Below, piece after piece: positions 3,218 to 20,000 of a stretch of 20,000 nt of DNA (the first letter of the stretch is position 1; each line of letters begins with the position of its first letter). A model generated the notes under the pieces. It saw nothing but the letters and a program-made list of their open reading frames with translations, made no database searches and was not told where the DNA came from. The stretch lies in IMG/VR virus record IMGVR_UViG_3300017931_000006. The stretch is one strand, 5' to 3'. Origin of the DNA: an uncultured virus (IMG/VR IMGVR_UViG_3300017931_000006). Lineage: Duplodnaviria > Heunggongvirae > Uroviricota > Caudoviricetes > Crassvirales. The position numbers were made by a program, and so were the translations under genes.

Positions 3218-3593
3218 AGTCTGGAGATACTTCCAGAGCCACCCAAAACTAGACATCTGTTACAGCACTTCTGATGGTAGAATATTTGAGGGACATGATA
3301 CGGCGGCGCAGCATGTTGACGATCCAGAAGGCCCAATGATGGACAAGGGAATTGTAGTCTGGCACAGGTCACTAGGAGTTATAGCTGAGTCCTTCGACCT
3401 ACTCGATAAGATAGATGAATACGTTGACAGGGGAAATCAATCATTAGGGGCAGCAGTAAACAAATTCAATGCAGAGGTAGTTTTGTCCCCGGAATATGAA
3501 GACCCAGAGCCAGTACAGTTTGCCATATGGTTATCCAAAAACAACAAGTTTAAGGCTCATGGCCGCGCTGCATACACAAAGCTCTATTCATAA
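3201..3593 (+). CDS. Hypothetical protein (YF..HP....Y.TSDG..F N-terminal motif)
   Basis: 130 aa ORF in operon context. Confidence 0.7.
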   Translation: MTTTSEVWRYFQSHPKLDICYSTSDGRIFEGHDTAAQHVDDPEGPMMDKGIVVWHRSLGVIAESFDLLDKIDEYVDRGNQSLGAAVNKFNAEVVLSPEYEDPEPVQFAIWLSKNNKFKAHGRAAYTKLYS

Positions 3594-3613
3594 TTTTGTA
3601 ACGAACAAACGAG

Positions 3614-3781
3614 ATGAAGAATACACTTTGGTTTATACTCTTACTCTTCTTCTTTCAGGAAAACTGGGAAGACAGGTGCAAGCACAAAACAAGGTACGAC
3701 ATCATGTTAGGAGTCCTTGTGTTGCTACTACTAGGATTAATTCTATTTATTTCTTACGCGTTTATAAAATACGTATTATGA
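3614..3781 (+). CDS. Small membrane protein (55 aa), not in ORF track
   Basis: MKNTLWFILLLFFFQENWEDRCKHKTRYDIMLGVLVLLLLGLILFISYAFIKYVL*; two hydrophobic segments; stop overlaps ATG 3778. Confidence 0.7.
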   Translation: MKNTLWFILLLFFFQENWEDRCKHKTRYDIMLGVLVLLLLGLILFISYAFIKYVL

Positions 3782-4653
3782 GAGACACTTTCACTAAAAA
3801 ATGGATAATAGAACACGCCATAGTCATTGTTGAACGCTATGAAAAAGGCGTACTAACATTGAGATCACTTCATTACCAGCTTTTCAGCGAAGGCATGACT
3901 AATGACTTACAACACTATAAACGTGTACTCACGGCCATGATCTACGCCAGATGGGAGGGATTAATAGACTTTGATCAATTCTCTGACCTTGATCGCGTAA
4001 TGGTAGGAGAGACTGCATGGAAGGAGACCGTTGTTGAAGACGAGATCTACACCGCCCAACGCCAAGTAAGAGCATGGATGACTAACTATCATAAAAACAA
4101 ATGGGAAAACCAGCCTTGGTACCCGGAAGTATTCATTGAGAAAAAAGCCCTTCAGGGTGTATTTCAAGATGTTTGCGAAGAGTGGAATATCGCACTGGGG
4201 GCCTGTAAGGGATACCCGTCCCTCACCTTCTTAAACGAAGCCTTCTTGCGGGTTCAGGAAGCCGAAAGAAGCGGCAAACAACCCATCATACTTTATTTTG
4301 GGGACTATGACCCCTATGGCGAAGATATACCTAGAAGTATACAAGAGAATATCGCAAGATTCGGAGTTGACATAGAGGTAAGAAGGATAGCCCTCATGGA
4401 AGACCAAGTTATCGAATGGAAGCTTCCACCAGCCCCAGCAAAGGTAGGAGACAGTAGGACTGCGAACTGGGATGGATTAGGACAAGTGGAACTCGACGCA
4501 GTGCGCCCAGAAAAATTAATGGATCTACTCAAAGAGGCTATTTCTTCAATATTTGACAACGAACTCTATGAAGAGCTCATGGAAAAAGAAGAAGAAGAGA
4601 GAACTCAATACCAGAAAGAACTGAAACAATTTGTAATCGACATTAAAGATTAA
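3778..4653 (+). CDS. Spo11/topoisomerase VI subunit A-like protein (winged-helix Tyr + Toprim); start corrected from 3496 to 3778 (291 aa)
   Basis: Motifs TLRSLHY (T.R.l.Y catalytic Tyr), FIEKKAL, CKGYPS, YFGDYDPYG and VELDA appear in the same order as in Spo11/TopoVI-A. Confidence 0.8.
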   Translation: MRDTFTKKWIIEHAIVIVERYEKGVLTLRSLHYQLFSEGMTNDLQHYKRVLTAMIYARWEGLIDFDQFSDLDRVMVGETAWKETVVEDEIYTAQRQVRAWMTNYHKNKWENQPWYPEVFIEKKALQGVFQDVCEEWNIALGACKGYPSLTFLNEAFLRVQEAERSGKQPIILYFGDYDPYGEDIPRSIQENIARFGVDIEVRRIALMEDQVIEWKLPPAPAKVGDSRTANWDGLGQVELDAVRPEKLMDLLKEAISSIFDNELYEELMEKEEEERTQYQKELKQFVIDIKD

Positions 4654-12815: not shown

Positions 12816-13358
12816 ATGAAAAAATTAACGCTTTTATTTCTGTTATTAACAGCCTGTACGAAAGAAAATGTAGTCCCCCAAGGAATTGATTACACTCTGA
12901 TCCCTCTTGAAAAATCCTCAATAACTGGCATAATTCCGAATGGAGGTGGTATAGGAACTACCGACTGGATTAACCCTACAAATGGACTTGCTGAATTTTG
13001 GGGAAAGGATTACAAGGGTATTTTATTTCAGAGCAAATGTATCGTTTTGAAAGGTAACGGCTTTGAGGGCAACTATCAGCAGATAGAAAACTCCTCACAG
13101 TACATGCTTTGGACAACTGCATTGGACTTTCCAACGAATCACTATGTACTATCCTTCAAATATAAAAGCACCTGTAAGATAACCGTATGTATCAGGAGAA
13201 CGCTTACCTGTGGCTATGTTTTAGCGACACTTCCGGCAACAAGAGAAATTACCTATGTGGAATTTCCAATTAATACAAATATTGTTCAGATACTTTTTTA
13301 TAATGACCCTTTCGGGGGTAAGAGTTGTTTTGATGAATTAAATATCAAGGAATTATGA
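12816..13358 (+). CDS. Putative lipoprotein with beta-rich (possibly carbohydrate-binding-like) domain; start corrected from 12738 to 12816
   Basis: MKKLTLLFLLLTA-C-TKEN lipobox; beta-strand pattern YVLSFKYKS...FDELNIKE. Confidence 0.75.
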   Translation: MKKLTLLFLLLTACTKENVVPQGIDYTLIPLEKSSITGIIPNGGGIGTTDWINPTNGLAEFWGKDYKGILFQSKCIVLKGNGFEGNYQQIENSSQYMLWTTALDFPTNHYVLSFKYKSTCKITVCIRRTLTCGYVLATLPATREITYVEFPINTNIVQILFYNDPFGGKSCFDELNIKEL

Positions 13359-13750
13359 AAGTAATTTTTGTAGGCATTCACAATAAAGAGGACATGATGC
13401 CCCTTGATATTCTTTCAAAATCAGGAAAGATAATTCATAAGATTGAAAAAGAACTTGGAATAAATGCTGTAAAAACCAATCTTTATGACATGGATAGGAT
13501 GCCAGAGGGAAATGAAATTGATATAGAGCCGATGGCGTGGTGGCATAGGAATGATGTTGAGATTGGAGATGTTATAGTCCTGCTTGGAATGTTCGTGCAT
13601 GATAACTTCCATTATGTGCCGATGTTTCATTATATTAAACTTCCACACCCCGCCTCTTCATTATTTCGTGGAGGAGGATCACAAAACGAATATATCAAAA
13701 AAGCAGTTGAAAAAATAAAACCTTTAATAATAATTGACCAACCTAATTAA
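13355..13750 (+). CDS. Minimal uracil-DNA glycosylase-superfamily-like protein
   Basis: VIFVG..N, SKSGK.I, TNL, VIVLLG..V and KLPHPAS match the UDG alpha/beta fold motif order. Confidence 0.65.
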   Translation: MKVIFVGIHNKEDMMPLDILSKSGKIIHKIEKELGINAVKTNLYDMDRMPEGNEIDIEPMAWWHRNDVEIGDVIVLLGMFVHDNFHYVPMFHYIKLPHPASSLFRGGGSQNEYIKKAVEKIKPLIIIDQPN

Positions 13751-14278: not shown

Positions 14279-14917
14279 ATGAAAACTAAAATTGAAATTT
14301 TAAATAGATGGAATAATGGGGTATTGTTTTCAACTGAATGCGAGGATAATACTCTTTTGAAATGCGTTCAAGAGGCTATTAGTAAAAGAGCCAATCTGTA
14401 CGGAGCCAATCTGCCCGGAGCCAATCTGCCCGGAGCCGATCTGTCCGGAGCCGATCTGTCCGGAGCCGATCTGTACGGAGCCAATCTGTACGGAGCCAAT
14501 CTGTACGGAGCCAATCTGTCCGGAGCCGATCTGTCCAGAGCCGATCTGCCCGGAGCCAATCTGCCCGGAGCCGATCTGTCCGGAGCCAATCTGTCCAGAG
14601 CCAATCTGTCCAGAGCCAATCTGTCCAGAGCCAATCTGTACGGAGCCAATCTGTACGGAGCCAAAATCGGTAATATAACTATAAAAAAGGCAATGGTTAT
14701 TAATGGTTTGTATAAATATTTAGCGATGCCAATTATTGCGGAAGACGGTAAGCAATACATCGGATTAGGTTGTCATTTAAGATCGGTTGACGATTGGGAA
14801 AATAATTTTTGGAACAATCCCAATGAATTTCCGAATGATAATTCTATAAAATCCCAATTACGGGTATTGGCTTTTGAAACAGCAAAGAAATGGCTGGAAA
14901 TAAACAAGGATAAATAA
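14279..14917 (+). CDS. Pentapeptide-repeat protein with C-terminal IxLGC-x7-W (DUF5758-like) domain
   Basis: 18 repeats of [GR]A[ND]L[YSP]; phage-type N-terminus KIEILNRW...VLF. Confidence 0.92.
   Translation: MKTKIEILNRWNNGVLFSTECEDNTLLKCVQEAISKRANLYGANLPGANLPGADLSGADLSGADLYGANLYGANLYGANLSGADLSRADLPGANLPGADLSGANLSRANLSRANLSRANLYGANLYGAKIGNITIKKAMVINGLYKYLAMPIIAEDGKQYIGLGCHLRSVDDWENNFWNNPNEFPNDNSIKSQLRVLAFETAKKWLEINKDK
14387..14656 (+). repeat. 15-bp coding tandem repeat RGAGCCRATCTGYMC x18
   Basis: Read directly from the sequence; 270 bp. Confidence 0.95.
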
Positions 14918-15240: not shown

Positions 15241-15537
15241 ATGAAAACAAAAGAAGAAAGAACAAACCGAATCCTTGCCAGAGGGGAAGTATCTGGTCAT
15301 TCTCACATCATAACGGGAGAATGTGAAATTATCCGTGACGGTGACAACGTAACTATCAAGGCAGGGAAGAATTGTGTTATTAAACACCTTTTAGAACAAC
15401 CTTTCATTGAAGAGGGCAGGGAGGAATGGACTAAAGAACACAAAGACATTCCTTTAAAAGAAGGTAATACTTATAAAAACATTCAACAGATAGAGTATAA
15501 TCCTTACGAAAAAGCTATCAGAAATGTTACCGACTAA
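15241..15537 (+). CDS. Small His-motif beta-rich protein (LARGEVSGHSH...H...EH...QxEY), partner of DUF6745-like proteins
   Basis: GExxGHxH and H/EH motifs, ends RNVTD; overlaps the next gene by 14 nt. Confidence 0.8.
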   Translation: MKTKEERTNRILARGEVSGHSHIITGECEIIRDGDNVTIKAGKNCVIKHLLEQPFIEEGREEWTKEHKDIPLKEGNTYKNIQQIEYNPYEKAIRNVTD

Positions 15538-17212
15538 AATTGAAAAATTAACACCAAAACAAAAAGCTAAAATACCAATTTATCTAAAAAGATATTTTGA
15601 TAAGGTGTACCATGCGCAACCAATTAATAAAAAATTGTGCGAAGATTCAATTTGTTATATCTACGAGAAATTTGGATATAAAAAGCCATTTATCTGGTAT
15701 GTTGAAAGTCCATTAATGGCGCAAATAATAGTCAACATATTGACAGATAAAGATAAACTGGACAATCTCGTGGATAATCTCAGGGACAATCTCGTGGTTA
15801 ATCTCGGGGATAATCTCAGGGCTAATCTCGGGGATAATCTCGTGGCTAATCTCTGGGCTAATCTCGGGGCTAATCTCGGGGATAATCTCAGGGATAATCT
15901 CGGGGATAATCTCGTGGCTAATCTCTGGGCTAATCTCAGGGACAATCTCGTGGATAATCTCAGGGACAATCTCGTGGTTAATCTCGGGGATAATCTCAGG
16001 GCTAATCTCGGGGCTAATCTCTGGGCTAATCTCTGGGCTAATCTCGGGGCTAATCTCGGGGCTAATCTCAGGGATAATCTCGGGGATAATCTCGTGGCTA
16101 ATCTCAGGGATAATCTCAGGGATAATCTCGTGGCTAATCTCTGGGCTAATCTCAGGGACAATCTCGTGGATAATCTCAGGGACAATCTCGTGGTTAATCT
16201 CGGGGATAATCTCTGGGCTAATCTCGGGGCTAATCTCAGGGCTAATCTCAGGGCTAATCTCGGGGCTAATCTCGGGGCTAATCTCAGGGATAATCTCGGG
16301 GATAATCTCGTGGCTAATCTCTGGGCTAATCTCAGGGATAATCTCGGGGATAATCTCGTGGCTAATCTCTGGGCTAATCTCAGGGATAATCTCGGGGATA
16401 ATCTCGGGGCTAATCTTGGGGCTAATCTCTGGGCTAATCTCTGGGCTAATCTCGGGGCTAATCTCAGGGCTAATCTCAGGGCTAATCTCGGGGCTAATCT
16501 CGTGGCTAATCTCGGGAAATTAAACTATATTACAACTTCGTATTATGGTAATATTTCCGATTTTGGATGGACGTGTTTTTATGATTTTATTAATACAGAA
16601 CTTATCCCTTCTTATGAATTAGAATTATGGACGAAATGGAAGCAATTAATAGATTCAAATGTTTATGATACAATTCAAATGGATGGTTTGTGTGTAGTAA
16701 TGTCTATGCCAAAAATTGTGCATATAAATGAAAACAAAAGACTTCATTGTGAAAATGGGCCATGTGTTGAATGGAAAGATGGCTATAAAGGTTATGCTTG
16801 GAATGGGATTATTGTTCCTGACTTCTGGATAACGAATAAGGAAAAACTGACCAAAGAAATTATCATCAATGAAAAAAACGCAGAAAAACGTAGATGTATT
16901 CAGGAAATACTTGGTGGGGAATTTATAAAAAAACTTGATGTAGAATTAATTGATTCTGACAAAGAAGATGAATTACCCATAGAACTTTACAGAACCAAAC
17001 AGCCGGATGATATTATTAATGAGCATATTTATTATCTTAAAGTTGTTTGTCCTTCTACTAATCGGGAGTACTTCTTGTGTGTTCCTGAATCAAAAAATGT
17101 CTGGGAGGCAAAAGCATGGACTTTTCAAAATCAAAAAATTGAAATTAGGCATGGTGATGTAGGATTATTAAATCTATCACAAAAATTTGACAAACCTATT
17201 TTTCAGTCATAA
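15524..17212 (+). CDS. DUF6745-like protein with a long tetrapeptide repeat insert
   Basis: N-terminal IEKLTP.Q...P..IW.VESP; C-terminal RLHCENGPCVEWKDG...YAWNG, I..EKNAEKRR, VVCPSTNREY.L.VP......EA.AWTF. Confidence 0.85.
   Translation: MLPTKIEKLTPKQKAKIPIYLKRYFDKVYHAQPINKKLCEDSICYIYEKFGYKKPFIWYVESPLMAQIIVNILTDKDKLDNLVDNLRDNLVVNLGDNLRANLGDNLVANLWANLGANLGDNLRDNLGDNLVANLWANLRDNLVDNLRDNLVVNLGDNLRANLGANLWANLWANLGANLGANLRDNLGDNLVANLRDNLRDNLVANLWANLRDNLVDNLRDNLVVNLGDNLWANLGANLRANLRANLGANLGANLRDNLGDNLVANLWANLRDNLGDNLVANLWANLRDNLGDNLGANLGANLWANLWANLGANLRANLRANLGANLVANLGKLNYITTSYYGNISDFGWTCFYDFINTELIPSYELELWTKWKQLIDSNVYDTIQMDGLCVVMSMPKIVHINENKRLHCENGPCVEWKDGYKGYAWNGIIVPDFWITNKEKLTKEIIINEKNAEKRRCIQEILGGEFIKKLDVELIDSDKEDELPIELYRTKQPDDIINEHIYYLKVVCPSTNREYFLCVPESKNVWEAKAWTFQNQKIEIRHGDVGLLNLSQKFDKPIFQS
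15761..16516 (+). repeat. 12-bp coding tandem repeat x63 encoding [DAV]NL[RGWV]
   Basis: 756 bp; unit G(A/C/T)Y AAT CTC (AGG/GGG/TGG/GTG); higher-order blocks restart at 15761, 15941 and 16157. Confidence 0.95.
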
Positions 17213-17332: not shown

Positions 17333-17565
17333 GAAATTTCTTTTTAGCCATAGCATTCTTCATGACTGCTCAGTTTGGAAATTATTATTATAAAGATCAT
17401 TTCCTTCAGCCGGCAACAGATAGTGTTTTGTTGAATGAACAATTCAAACAATCGAGGATGCTTTCAAAAGAAAGGAGATCCCTGATCCTAAATGGAGCGA
17501 TAAAGCGTATGAGTTCCTCTTGTGGTACATTAAATACCACGACTGGAGAACACCATTTATGGTAG
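17329..17565 (+). CDS. Hypothetical protein with hydrophobic N-terminus (3' half doubtful)
   Basis: MRNFFLAIAFFMTA start is coupled to the upstream stop; the 3' half overlaps a more convincing frame. Confidence 0.4.
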   Translation: MRNFFLAIAFFMTAQFGNYYYKDHFLQPATDSVLLNEQFKQSRMLSKERRSLILNGAIKRMSSSCGTLNTTTGEHHLW

Positions 17566-17738
17566 AGGATGTTAGAAAGTCAGCCATAGGAACCGTAGAA
17601 GAACCTCCTAGCTTGAGGGCTTGGGGGAGTATTATTGTAAAAGCTAGCAAGAATGGGTTTATTAAACGAGTAGGTTACAAACAGGTCAATAACCCATTGG
17701 CACACAAAACACCAGCCTCACTCTGGGCTATCGTTTAG
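17439..17738 (+). CDS. Conserved phage winged-helix-like protein (F..EDVR...PP..RAWG...G.I...G...AH.....W); 5' end appears disrupted
   Basis: The frame is open from 17439 (TIQTIEDAFKRKEIPDPKWSDKAYEFLLWYIK...), upstream of the TTG 17520 call, with no in-frame ATG there. Confidence 0.6.
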   Translation, partial: TIQTIEDAFKRKEIPDPKWSDKAYEFLLWYIKYHDWRTPFMVEDVRKSAIGTVEEPPSLRAWGSIIVKASKNGFIKRVGYKQVNNPLAHKTPASLWAIV

Positions 17739-19002
17739 GGAATAACTTCACTCCATACTCTTCTAATTTATCCATATATTCGAAGGCTGTATCTATCGAT
17801 TTAACATGGATCTCTAGACAGTACCCCTTCACCTGTTCGGCTATCGCTTTTAACTGATCAACAGCTCCCTCCAGTGTATCATCCTCAGCTCTTATAGCCC
17901 CTATTTCCGGGACCTCACATACCTGTGGCACCACATAGGTCTTCCCTTCAATCATGCAGCAATTCCTGAGCGTCACATTCTCTTTTATGCTGTCCGGGAA
18001 GTATATTGCCTGCCAGTTCTTAGGAGCCCATGCAGAGTGAATTAGAGCCTCTACCCCCCATTTCTTTGTGGTAATTGGCTCTACTATATTGCCATGGGCG
18101 CCTTCCCAGATTATATCAGCAAGGTTCTTGTACATTAAAAAGAAAAGCTCGCTAGGAGGTGAACCCGGGCGGGCGCAGAAATCGAGCATGTAAGATTTAT
18201 GATCCTTACCGACCCTGAATTCTGTTCCAAAGAATCCGCGATACCCGTAACTCTTAAAAGTGTCGGCCATTTTATCGTTGAATACGGTGATCTCCGGGGG
18301 AAGTGTTTTGTCTTCCCCAATAATCCCTATGTATCCAAGGTCTTTTACTTCGACCCCACACAGGTATCTCTTAGGGTATTTACCGTCCACAGTCCAGAAG
18401 TCAGAGGCTATCTCTACCTTGTCATCTAGAGCATCATCCACAACCCATGTATAAATATACTTCTTGGCCCCAAGTTTCCACTCCAACTCATCCAACATCG
18501 GCTCTGAAAGTTTGTAGTTCTCGGAGTGCCACGTCTCTCCATCCCCCCGGTAGAGATCCAATTTAACCCATACATTTTCATGTTCCTTTAGGTATTTCCT
18601 GAGATTATCTAGGCCAGTAATCTTCTCGTATCCACCAACAGGCATACCCAACTTTTTCATGTGTTCCTTAAAAGCAGCGCGATCAGTCTCCATCTCTTCA
18701 CCACGACGAGCTCCAAAAACAGGCTTACCAAGAGACTCTAGAAAAATCTCGAGATCCCACATCCCCATAACCTCTGAGGAGTAGAAGATATCAGTTTCAT
18801 CGATAACATCAAAAAGGTTATTAACCCGGTTGATCTCAGGAAATCCATAACCCGGCAGTGTAAAATTGGATTTTGGGAATGGTCCATTCCAAGGGGTCCA
18901 GTAATTAACTTTACCAAAATCCTTAGCCAGCGTGAGTGCGTGGTTCACAAAGATCCCGCCATCTATAACGGTAATACACTTGGTCCCATATTTCTTAGTC
19001 AT
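17728..19002 (-). CDS. ATP-grasp ligase, distantly PurD (GAR synthetase)-like
   Basis: PVFGA....EMETDRAFK-type segment, VWVK, E/D-rich ATP-grasp strands, YRGFFGTEF and YMLDFCARPGSPP (compare PurD lEfNaRfGdPe). Confidence 0.8.
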   Translation of the reverse strand: MTKKYGTKCITVIDGGIFVNHALTLAKDFGKVNYWTPWNGPFPKSNFTLPGYGFPEINRVNNLFDVIDETDIFYSSEVMGMWDLEIFLESLGKPVFGARRGEEMETDRAAFKEHMKKLGMPVGGYEKITGLDNLRKYLKEHENVWVKLDLYRGDGETWHSENYKLSEPMLDELEWKLGAKKYIYTWVVDDALDDKVEIASDFWTVDGKYPKRYLCGVEVKDLGYIGIIGEDKTLPPEITVFNDKMADTFKSYGYRGFFGTEFRVGKDHKSYMLDFCARPGSPPSELFFLMYKNLADIIWEGAHGNIVEPITTKKWGVEALIHSAWAPKNWQAIYFPDSIKENVTLRNCCMIEGKTYVVPQVCEVPEIGAIRAEDDTLEGAVDQLKAIAEQVKGYCLEIHVKSIDTAFEYMDKLEEYGVKLFPKR

Positions 19003-19378
19003 GCCCCGGTAGTTTTAAATAGTTTAACATCAGTCTCGTTACGAGTGTAGAAAATTGATGAGCCATCAAATATGGAGCTCTTGGATCATCCCCGGGCTCT
19101 GCATCTTTTGGGTGCAGGCCTTCGTCACATTCTTTTTCAAACATCTGGTCAAAGGCTAGTATATCTTCCTCAAGAATGCCTTCGTGATCCGTCAAAATAA
19201 ACTCAATCAATTCATGTAAGGCCACCAATCGGTCATCAAGGATATTTCCGCTCTCTGTCGCAGTTATTATAACCTTTTGGCCTTTACTTCCTTTCTCATA
19301 ATAATAATCCCCTTGATACATCGAGGGGAAGCGTGTCTCTTCCGCTGGGATGATTTTAATATTAATCTCACTCATCAT
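18995..19378 (-). CDS. Hypothetical metal-binding protein (GDY...LVALHELIE...EPGDDPRAPY..H)
   Basis: 127 aa; HExxE motif plus a distal His; translationally coupled to both neighbours. Confidence 0.8.
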   Translation of the reverse strand: MMSEINIKIIPAEETRFPSMYQGDYYYEKGSKGQKVIITATESGNILDDRLVALHELIEFILTDHEGILEEDILAFDQMFEKECDEGLHPKDAEPGDDPRAPYLMAHQFSTLVTRLMLNYLKLPGHD

Positions 19379-19743
19379 GTCCTGTTTATTAATCTGAATG
19401 TGACTTTACTTGTTTTAAAATAACACCTGACTAGCTCTTCTACAGCAAACCTGTCAAAGAACTTACAGGAGAAGATGTTCATGTACATTGAATGCGTGAT
19501 GTCCAATGTGTGAATAGTGATGTTGCTGGTCTTGATGAACTGAATACAACTCAATCCCTGTAAATGAGGGATGGGAGTGTCCTCCATCCAGAAAAAGGGA
19601 GGTTTTGCGCGTTCAACATCCAGTGTCGTAATTAGAAGATCTAAAAACGCCCTGATTTTTTTTCTTGTCATTAAGGATGGATCACAGTCGTGGGCGTCTA
19701 CGATCAATTCCATACCGTAATGGGTGCTGTCGCTTCCGATCAT
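19375..19743 (-). CDS. speD: S-adenosylmethionine decarboxylase-like pyruvoyl proenzyme
   Basis: YGMELIVDAHDCD, GLSCIQFIKT-SNITIHT (compare GvSg...laESHisiHT) and YMNIFSC (compare .DvFtCG); substrate not certain. Confidence 0.8.
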   Translation of the reverse strand: MIGSDSTHYGMELIVDAHDCDPSLMTRKKIRAFLDLLITTLDVERAKPPFFWMEDTPIPHLQGLSCIQFIKTSNITIHTLDITHSMYMNIFSCKFFDRFAVEELVRCYFKTSKVTFRLINRT

Positions 19744-19747
19744 TTTT

Positions 19748-20000
19748 CTACGGGTTTTTGATTGAGAATTTATTATATGAACTACGTTCTCTTATCGAAG
19801 GAGGTTCACCAGATCCTCCTCCTTTCTCCACGGTATCTACTACAGGTAATTTTGGTTTGTCATAATATTCAAGGCCTTCTTTTTGAACTCGATTGAACAA
19901 CATCTGTTCCAAAGAGTCCCTGACGGCTTGTTTTTTCTCAGCAGCCTCTTTCTTAGCCTCCAATTCTTCTTCTGGCAGTCCATACATCTTTACTTCTTCA
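19748..20000 (-). CDS. C-terminal end of a larger protein (truncated by window end)
   Basis: The frame stays open upstream of ATG 19987 to the window edge (EEVK-MYGLPEEELEAKK...); charged low-complexity tail; 4 nt before the speD-like start. Confidence 0.6.
   Translation of the reverse strand, partial: EEVKMYGLPEEELEAKKEAAEKKQAVRDSLEQMLFNRVQKEGLEYYDKPKLPVVDTVEKGGGSGEPPSIRERSSYNKFSIKNP

Follow-up and report, generated by a model that had tools for sequence, protein, structure and literature searches.

A PurD-derived ATP-grasp ligase gene coupled to decarboxylase and HExxE-protein genes in the late regions of uncultured tailed phages

Introduction

What a tailed phage might do with a decarboxylase, a small HExxE protein and an amide-forming ligase is the question raised by one end of a 20,000-nucleotide stretch of DNA from an uncultured member of the Crassvirales (IMG/VR IMGVR_UViG_3300017931_000006), the whole of which we refer to as the window. 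There, three intact minus-strand open reading frames (ORFs) encode a decarboxylase of the pyruvoyl S-adenosylmethionine decarboxylase (AdoMetDC) fold (DC; 122 aa, positions 19743-19375), a protein named here for its HExxE motif (127 aa, 19378-18995) and a PurD-derived ATP-grasp ligase (424 aa, 19002-17728). As an initial annotation of the window had stated, the three are coupled by an ATGA stop/start overlap at 19375-19378 (a gap of -4) and an 8-nt overlap at 18995-19002 (a gap of -8). That annotation read them as one pathway that makes an amine and ligates it to a carboxylate, in the service of DNA hypermodification, virion modification or anti-defence. Here we report that the module is widespread in viruses and so far undescribed: no description was found in the literature searched, nor in the available text of three surveys (PMC7824862, PMC5512222, PMC9503650), with subscription papers and supplements lying outside this coverage. 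Papers given by PMC or bioRxiv number were available in part, and the statements that rest on them hold for that part.

Results

The ligase matched no Pfam family, the GARS families included, and against the purD model TIGR00877 it scored 25.9 bits, not reaching the curated cut-off of 288. Its AlphaFold2 model (pLDDT 96.8) shares the N, B, A and C domains of the PurD ATP-grasp fold; in Foldseek the best match was the glycinamide ribonucleotide (GAR) synthetase 2yw2 (TM 0.76, 16% identity), and the top 13 rows listed were all GAR synthetases. We aligned five bacterial PurDs with 23 phage ligases and mapped the residue roles of human GARS by motif. In the human enzyme Asp217, Lys219 and Arg292 serve the glycine acyl donor, Arg13 and Glu14 of GGREH and Asp295 of RFGDPE form the phosphoribosylamine (PRA) site, and GLAAGK is the B-loop (PMC2978367). 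The acyl-donor residues correspond to E218 (an Asp-to-Glu change), K220 and R278 of the window's ligase, which are kept in 124 of 124 ligases and are invariant in the family together with E105, R152 and D274. Arg13/Glu14, Asp295 and the GLAAGK loop, on the other side of the reaction, are absent from the window's ligase and from the other 22 phage ligases aligned. Because the PRA contacts are lost and the amino-acid and acyl-phosphate residues are kept, the protein probably works in the manner of a PurD-type carboxylate-amine ligase, yet is not a PurD. The aligned phage ligases form two clades, one of which retains GPNTG and EWTPRFG echoes of PurD, and a Pfam scan of the flanking proteins found no pur genes near the module.

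At 50% identity the family counts 1,173 representatives, with 664 reaching E <= 1e-30; viral sequences make up 96% of the 1,438 members of the nearest Atlas cluster. Among 50,697 GenBank phage records, matches were confined to metagenome-derived records of hot-spring viruses; homologues are labelled purK-like, purD or hypothetical in GenBank and, in one case, 'phosphoribosylamine-glycine ligase'. Related ligases also occur in cellular genome records such as a Bradyrhizobium chromosome (L231). The gene is split across frames in a Bacteroides metagenome-assembled genome (L229:9956-11248) and apparently in the Bradyrhizobium record as well (L231:10077-11702), whether by error or by decay. Eleven of the top 150 matches are 758-792 aa long, and the three long ligases scanned gave weak Hint/intein or LAGLIDADG matches, with insertions beside R278 or after the E-x-K-D motif; inteins at conserved active-site motifs suggest that the enzyme is under selection. 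Intein-like insertions at these two motifs were seen in P0010, P0011, P0019, P0028, P0082, P0099, P0106 and P0155. Other homologues carry an N-terminal HAD-phosphatase or acylphosphatase domain (P0050, P0062, P0070, P0138 at L035:8316-10001, and P0055).

The DC belongs to PF02675 (E 6.9e-12; 46.1 bits against a cut-off of 25). The processing triad of class 1b AdoMetDC, Ser63/His68/Cys83 (PMC10407285), is intact in it as S73, H78 and C93. A conserved Pro after the His marks bona fide AdoMetDCs, and we took this to be the P of HTWP, a motif present in 0 of 35 members of the window's DC clade; the window's own DC reads HTLD, and its score against TIGR03330 (20.5 bits) did not reach the equivalog cut-off of 75.65. 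At what appear to be the marker positions of SpeDC, an AdoMetDC homologue acting on ornithine, the DC has Q68, T72 and Y87, with Thr instead of Phe after H78. Its closest biochemically tested relative, at 35% identity, is SpeD of Sinorhizobium phage phiN3, a bona fide AdoMetDC though placed in the ornithine decarboxylase (ODC) clade (PMC9992855). The probable substrate of the DC is a basic amino acid (Orn, Lys or Arg). A phage-specific AdoMetDC-fold lineage (L085-L156, e.g. L110:7701-8072) has an ITESF..D.W motif and Asp in place of the processing His, and lies mostly below the Pfam cut-off.

The HExxE protein had no family match in Pfam, NCBIfam or PADLOC, and its PHROG match was at chance level (E 0.15); 333 homologues were reached via P0005. 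H55, E56, E59, P102, Y103 and H107 are invariant and fall in two motifs, H55-E56-x-x-E59 and EPGD...PY...H107. HExxE is present in 92 of 98 homologues and PY-xxx-H in 95, and HExxH in none, the protein being without the HEXXH motif of zincin metallopeptidases. Most of the top structural matches of its model (pLDDT 92) were zincins, the best being CapP at Z 5.4 (rmsd 3.1, 87 residues aligned), which is weak and below the level of a confident match; in the Atlas, TM values of 0.53-0.54 to M78 clusters were under the naming bar. The model thus suggests a small zincin-like fold and a putative metallo-hydrolase or ligase partner, in which H55, E59 and H107 may form a one-metal site with E56 as base. 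One candidate ligase-HExxE fusion, P0026, was not counted, since the junction within its single called ORF looks like a frameshift.

We surveyed the neighbourhoods of the 80 best HExxE loci out of 277 and of the 80 best ligase loci out of 267 (the latter twice, with overlap), so that close relatives are over-represented in the frequencies. Sequences were grouped at 70% identity, the groups are not phylogenetically independent, and lineage counts are approximate, coming from quick trees with long-branch warnings. Single-sequence searches for loci in IMG/VR gave no matches and alignment queries were required; the window's DC as sole query found 0 DCs in the 80 HExxE loci, and a DC profile found them in one of these and in 45 of the 80 ligase loci. 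PDB sequence searches were uninformative. The expectation that the genes co-occur in relatives was borne out. HExxE loci carry the ligase in 53 of 80 cases (37 of 55 groups) and a DC in one, the remaining 27 having no ligase in the fetched flank; HExxE genes without a ligase stand next to portal or terminase-like genes in L020, L023, L027, L063 and L073. Ligase loci carry a DC in 45 of 80 cases (18 of 41 groups), HExxE in 19 (14 of 41 groups) and both in seven. Over 94 ligase groups, an anchoring that enriches HExxE, 49 have HExxE only, 13 DC only, 10 both and 22 neither, and in the 48 ligase-anchored groups HExxE and DC are independent of each other (8, 12, 13, 15; p=0.77).

All three genes occur together in four orders (H-D-G, D-H-G, D-G-H and G-H-D, with G for the ligase) over 10 ligase groups including this genome, and further in L238; on a single contig, an in-frame DC-HExxE fusion of 251 aa is followed by the ligase (L265:5986-6741). 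Of the junctions between module genes, 140 of 181 are at most 30 nt. The three-gene pathway first proposed is thus supported in part: the trio recurs, but it is not obligatory, and in ligase-anchored groups its two smaller members occur independently. HExxE is spread across both ligase clades, and DCs are found in one part of the ligase tree plus two outliers, this genome among them. At least four separate AdoMetDC-fold lineages occupy the DC slot in the quick tree. The ligase of L112/L203, sister to a DC-bearing one, is ATGA-coupled to a pyruvoyl arginine decarboxylase with a different fold (PF01862, E 4.9e-45), which follows it in the head-gene region of L112 (9311-9853). Because several DC lineages and an unrelated arginine decarboxylase occupy the same slot, an amine appears to be needed. 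The ligase is the core of the module, HExxE its older and commonest partner, and the DC an addition made several times, with both partners optional. We rejected the HExxE protein as a replacement amine source for the DC, as the two are neither exclusive nor linked, and likewise a DC located elsewhere in genomes without an adjacent one (0 of 46). Clustering of all neighbours yielded no further recurring enzyme partner, mainly terminases, portals, capsids and replication genes, and Pfam on 187 flanking proteins returned scattered enzymes only, two GNATs included. GNAT acetyltransferases, possibly acting on polyamines, lie just upstream of a DC-ligase pair at L101:8483-8929 and L111:2066-2623.

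DCs of the window's type were found in 55 viral loci, accompanied by DUF3326 in 36 (adjacent in 31), by the ligase in four, by both in none and by neither in 15; DUF3326 was in none of the ligase or HExxE loci. Several DC-DUF3326 units are beside portal or MuF genes (L241-L292, e.g. L272:6001-7328). A DUF3326 protein and a lysine-decarboxylase-like domain are required for N-(5-aminopentyl)pentane-1,5-diamine, a triamine (bioRxiv 10.64898/2026.06.12.731819). This product, together with the DUF3326 partnership of the sister DCs, points to a DC that makes a diamine, and suggests that the ligase and DUF3326 are two interchangeable routes for elaborating an amine in the head-gene region.

The module was described from the outset as following the tail of a larger gene and closing a minus-strand block, and this holds. 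The upstream minus-strand frame (19748..20000) is open to the end of the window, and 4 nt separate its stop at 19748 from the DC start. Metagenome contig L224, with a ligase showing 100% identity to that of the window, carries this gene, which encodes more than 3,084 aa (L224:1-9255) with a radical SAM domain (PF04055, E 3.8e-9, residues 771-919). Judging from its size, its position and a HEXXH stretch spotted by eye, it probably encodes a virion-cargo or polyvalent protein; the third cluster Cys of the radical SAM domain is replaced (CxxxCxxY), and radical SAM has 0 mentions in the available text of the polyvalent-protein paper (PMC5512222). Across 81 of the 94 groups, loci with the module less than 3 kb from an edge having been dropped, the gene directly before the module is 500 aa or longer in 55, compared with 104 of 602 for control genes, and 1,000 aa or longer in 24, compared with 14 of 602.

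At its other end the ligase, the final minus-strand gene, overlaps by 11 nt a convergent plus-strand ORF (17520-17738). A terminator-like hairpin directly after its stop (minus strand, 17730-17713) is not above chance, as the scan found three against 2.3 +/- 1.8 expected, and the promoter scan of the locus was likewise at chance level. The stretch itself is matched letter for letter and without gaps, wherever they cover it, by contigs from four runs of four other studies, each partial and none spanning the whole. Peat and wetland metagenomes hold the window (15 of 24 listed runs with at least half of its words, with three possible sources), and none of the listed runs holding window words is an RNA run. 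Pfam was run on 16 ORFs of the window, whose plus-strand block comprises replication and recombination genes, for example a Rad50/SMC-like ATPase. Elsewhere in the window are a DUF6745 protein with a long N-L-x-x repeat tract (15524-17212), preceded by a small cupin-like ORF (15241-15537), a pentapeptide-repeat protein (14279-14917), a small ORF with a weak uracil-DNA-glycosylase-superfamily match (13355-13750, E 0.0017) and an ORF at 3496-4653 with a Toprim-like 'GDYDPYG' stretch spotted by eye and no Pfam support. We presume the last to be DUF3322/topo VI-like.

Discussion

The data show the folds, the coupling and co-occurrence of the genes, their intact catalytic residues, the exchange of partners and a late-gene setting. 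From them we infer amine production, amide formation and the kind of acceptor, and our tentative reading, to which we give slightly less than an even chance, is that a late-expressed phage module makes an amide-linked aminoacyl-polyamine for the virion. The DC would cleave itself at T72-S73 to generate a pyruvoyl group and decarboxylate a basic amino acid to putrescine, cadaverine or agmatine; phages that lack a DC would use host amines instead. The ligase, with its ATP-grasp fold, would use ATP to activate a free amino acid, or a very short peptide, as its acyl-phosphate, with this substrate lying in the pocket that descends from the PurD glycine site (E218, K220, R278). The amine, placed where PurD binds phosphoribosylamine, would attack the acyl-phosphate to give the aminoacyl-polyamine. 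More speculatively, this product could act while the head is filled or its contents are ejected, as a tailored counter-ion to DNA and acidic cargo proteins, and the HExxE protein could be a zincin-like amidohydrolase with a single metal, able to trim, recycle or cleave off the amide.

Several observations weigh against a free aminoacyl-polyamine product. The position after large cargo genes and the peptidase-fold partner fit protein modification at least equally well, and a hydrolase beside a ligase could be futile unless the two are kept apart in time or place. Fifteen of the 48 ligase-anchored groups have neither partner, the two partners are statistically independent, and the HAD and acylphosphatase fusions of the ligase go unexplained. 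phiN3 SpeD also lacks the HTWP Pro, yet is active on SAM, and because this true AdoMetDC sits inside the ODC clade, the DC substrate cannot be read from sequence. Finally, the main ligase-linked DC lineage mostly has Asp at the position of Thermotoga maritima His68, so some ligase-linked DCs may not self-process.

The main competing explanation, though we consider it unlikely, is that the ligase attaches a polyamine to proteins inside the virion (portal, scaffold or the giant cargo protein), at Glu or Asp side chains or at C-termini, reversing their charge for packaging. The HExxE zincin would then take the tag off again or process the proteins that carry it. ATP-grasp and peptidase genes reportedly form tagging pairs (Iyer et al., in 2009). 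The module stands directly after large genes (the 55 of 81 groups above, and here the protein of more than 3,084 aa), its zincin-like partner occurs in both ligase clades, and zincin peptidases process polyvalent virion proteins (PMC5512222). The large neighbours, however, are mutually unrelated (portals, terminases, ejection-like and baseplate genes), with no conserved substrate apparent, and the PurD-type four-domain fold with an acidic E218 at the amino-group site suits a small donor that bears a free amine.

A host-directed module, placing an amine on the carboxylate of a host metabolite or peptidoglycan precursor for superinfection exclusion, envelope change or anti-defence, is improbable. 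Optional, shuffled genes at operon ends do resemble morons, related ligases are found in cellular genome records (e.g. L231), and lysins and amidases are occasional neighbours; but 0 of 5 proteins matched PADLOC, no membrane or cell-wall partner recurs among the clustered neighbours, and the module is tightly coupled to late structural genes. The anti-defence role first entertained has thus gained no positive evidence, while the virion-modification option survives in this late virion-gene context.

We doubt still more strongly that the DC is a true AdoMetDC whose product, decarboxylated S-adenosylmethionine, is itself the ligated amine or feeds a host spermidine synthase, with the ligase acting on spermidine. 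The PF02675 match and the activity of phiN3 SpeD, its nearest tested relative, favour this; against it stand the absence of HTWP from all 35 clade members, the arginine decarboxylase of another fold in the same slot and the pairing of sister DCs with DUF3326. Moreover, the spermidine synthase SpeE, the aminopropyltransferase that might have accounted for the DC, turned up in none of 30 related genomes, half of which (15) are at least 90% complete; about 29 kb (window plus L224) of the 38,204 bases of the window's own contig is covered, and the remainder could encode one. Arginase/agmatinase was found in 0 of 50 module-bearing genomes, and 5 of 5 known DCs were recovered as a positive control for the whole-genome searches. 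Together with the co-occurrence survey and the failure of the ligase in the PurD residue comparison, the SpeE result supports the amine-making, amide-ligating pathway first proposed.

Transfer of the amine to a carboxylated base or nucleotide is very unlikely. Amine-modified phage bases exist, and the PurD ancestry and the few N-terminal HAD-phosphatase fusions would suit such a pathway. In the same 50 genomes, however, of which 38 are at least 90% complete, searches found ThyA-like hydroxymethylases in none and TGT/DpdA in none (TET/JBP, hmU kinase and PurZ were not searched), which leaves the proposal of DNA hypermodification without support; one ligase-bearing hot-spring virus outside the 50 has an annotated thymidylate synthase. 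No base-modification enzyme recurs nearby, the ligase has lost its phosphate and ribose contacts, and the genes sit among late, not replication, genes. That the ligase is an ordinary auxiliary PurD beside an unrelated speD is scarcely credible: GAR synthetase is its best structural match and one homologue is a 'phosphoribosylamine-glycine ligase' in GenBank, but identity is 16%, the score is 25.9 bits against 288, the PRA-binding residues and B-loop are gone, and no pur genes are near.

Going further, one may conjecture, with appreciably less assurance, that a PurD-derived enzyme encoded by uncultured tailed phages in more than 1,000 clusters reversibly 'polyaminates' the virion interior, by amidation of ejected cargo proteins or by an aminoacyl-polyamine packaged with the DNA. 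The HExxE protein would then be a metallo-amidase that undoes this, and DC with DUF3326 a convergent solution to the same packaging problem. Virion 'polyamination', if true, would be a new layer of virion chemistry without a counterpart in cultured model phages. It is an old question how DNA under tight packing, and giant cargo proteins with it, are neutralised and ejected. To this question the module brings three small enzymes whose possible substrates are few and can be tested, and it would also give the PurD fold a new reaction and the zincins a new metal site, HExxE. In annotation, ligases labelled purD or purK would inflate counts of purine auxiliary metabolic genes.

Set beside known systems, the module's proposed chemistry has precedent in the amide ligation of polyamines by ATP-grasp enzymes, but the enzyme family, the partners and the virion setting are undescribed. 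New here are the place of HExxE as the older partner, the fusion of DC and HExxE, the exchange of the DC for an arginine decarboxylase, and the finding that ligase and DUF3326 exclude each other. PurD/GAR synthetase (PF01071, PF02843; 2yw2) shares with the phage ligase the N-B-A-C ATP-grasp fold, the acyl-donor residues and, in the second phage clade, motif echoes; the phage enzyme differs in the loss of GGREH, GLAAGK and the Asp of RFGDPE, and in a viral late-gene context with decarboxylases and a zincin as partners in place of a pur operon. Glutathionylspermidine synthetase (GspS) and the YgiC/YjfC ligases are ATP-grasp enzymes that link the carboxylate of a peptide to a polyamine, and GspS bears its own amidase, an arrangement that resembles the ligase with its HExxE partner. 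They belong to another ATP-grasp lineage, none of them appearing in the 42 listed rows of the Foldseek search, and to a cellular, envelope or redox setting. The phiEco32-like COOH-NH2 ligase modules are likewise phage-borne amide-forming gene clusters, with different ligase families and partners, and none of the three proteins matched the models for these modules in Pfam or PHROG.

On the decarboxylase side, the DC shares its fold and Ser/His/Cys triad with class 1b AdoMetDC and with the homologues SpeDA (Arg) and SpeDC (Orn), and SpeE is absent around the neofunctionalised homologues too (PMC10407285, PMC9992855). Its Gln, Thr and Tyr at marker-like positions recall SpeDC, from which it departs in having Thr, not Phe, after the His. 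Its coupled partner is a ligase, in place of the HSS, DHS or agmatinase of those homologues; the word 'ligase' has 0 occurrences in the available text of PMC9992855, which describes no DC-ligase link there. The HExxE protein appears to have the three-stranded sheet and active-site helix of IrrE/PprI, CapP, SprT/Wss1, YbeY and the metallopeptidases (MPTases) of polyvalent proteins (PMC5512222), and its top structural neighbours are zincins. It differs in having HExxE, not HExxH, and a His on the last helix where MPTases bear Glu, so that the ligands are apparently swapped, and in standing alone and coupled to a ligase, with a Z of 5.4 at best. A further parallel is PavA/PavB, a decarboxylase with DUF3326 (bioRxiv 10.64898/2026.06.12.731819): there too a decarboxylase is coupled to an amine-condensing enzyme, and DUF3326 is the usual partner of the window's own DC clade, also beside portal genes, whereas the partner here is an ATP-dependent amide ligase.

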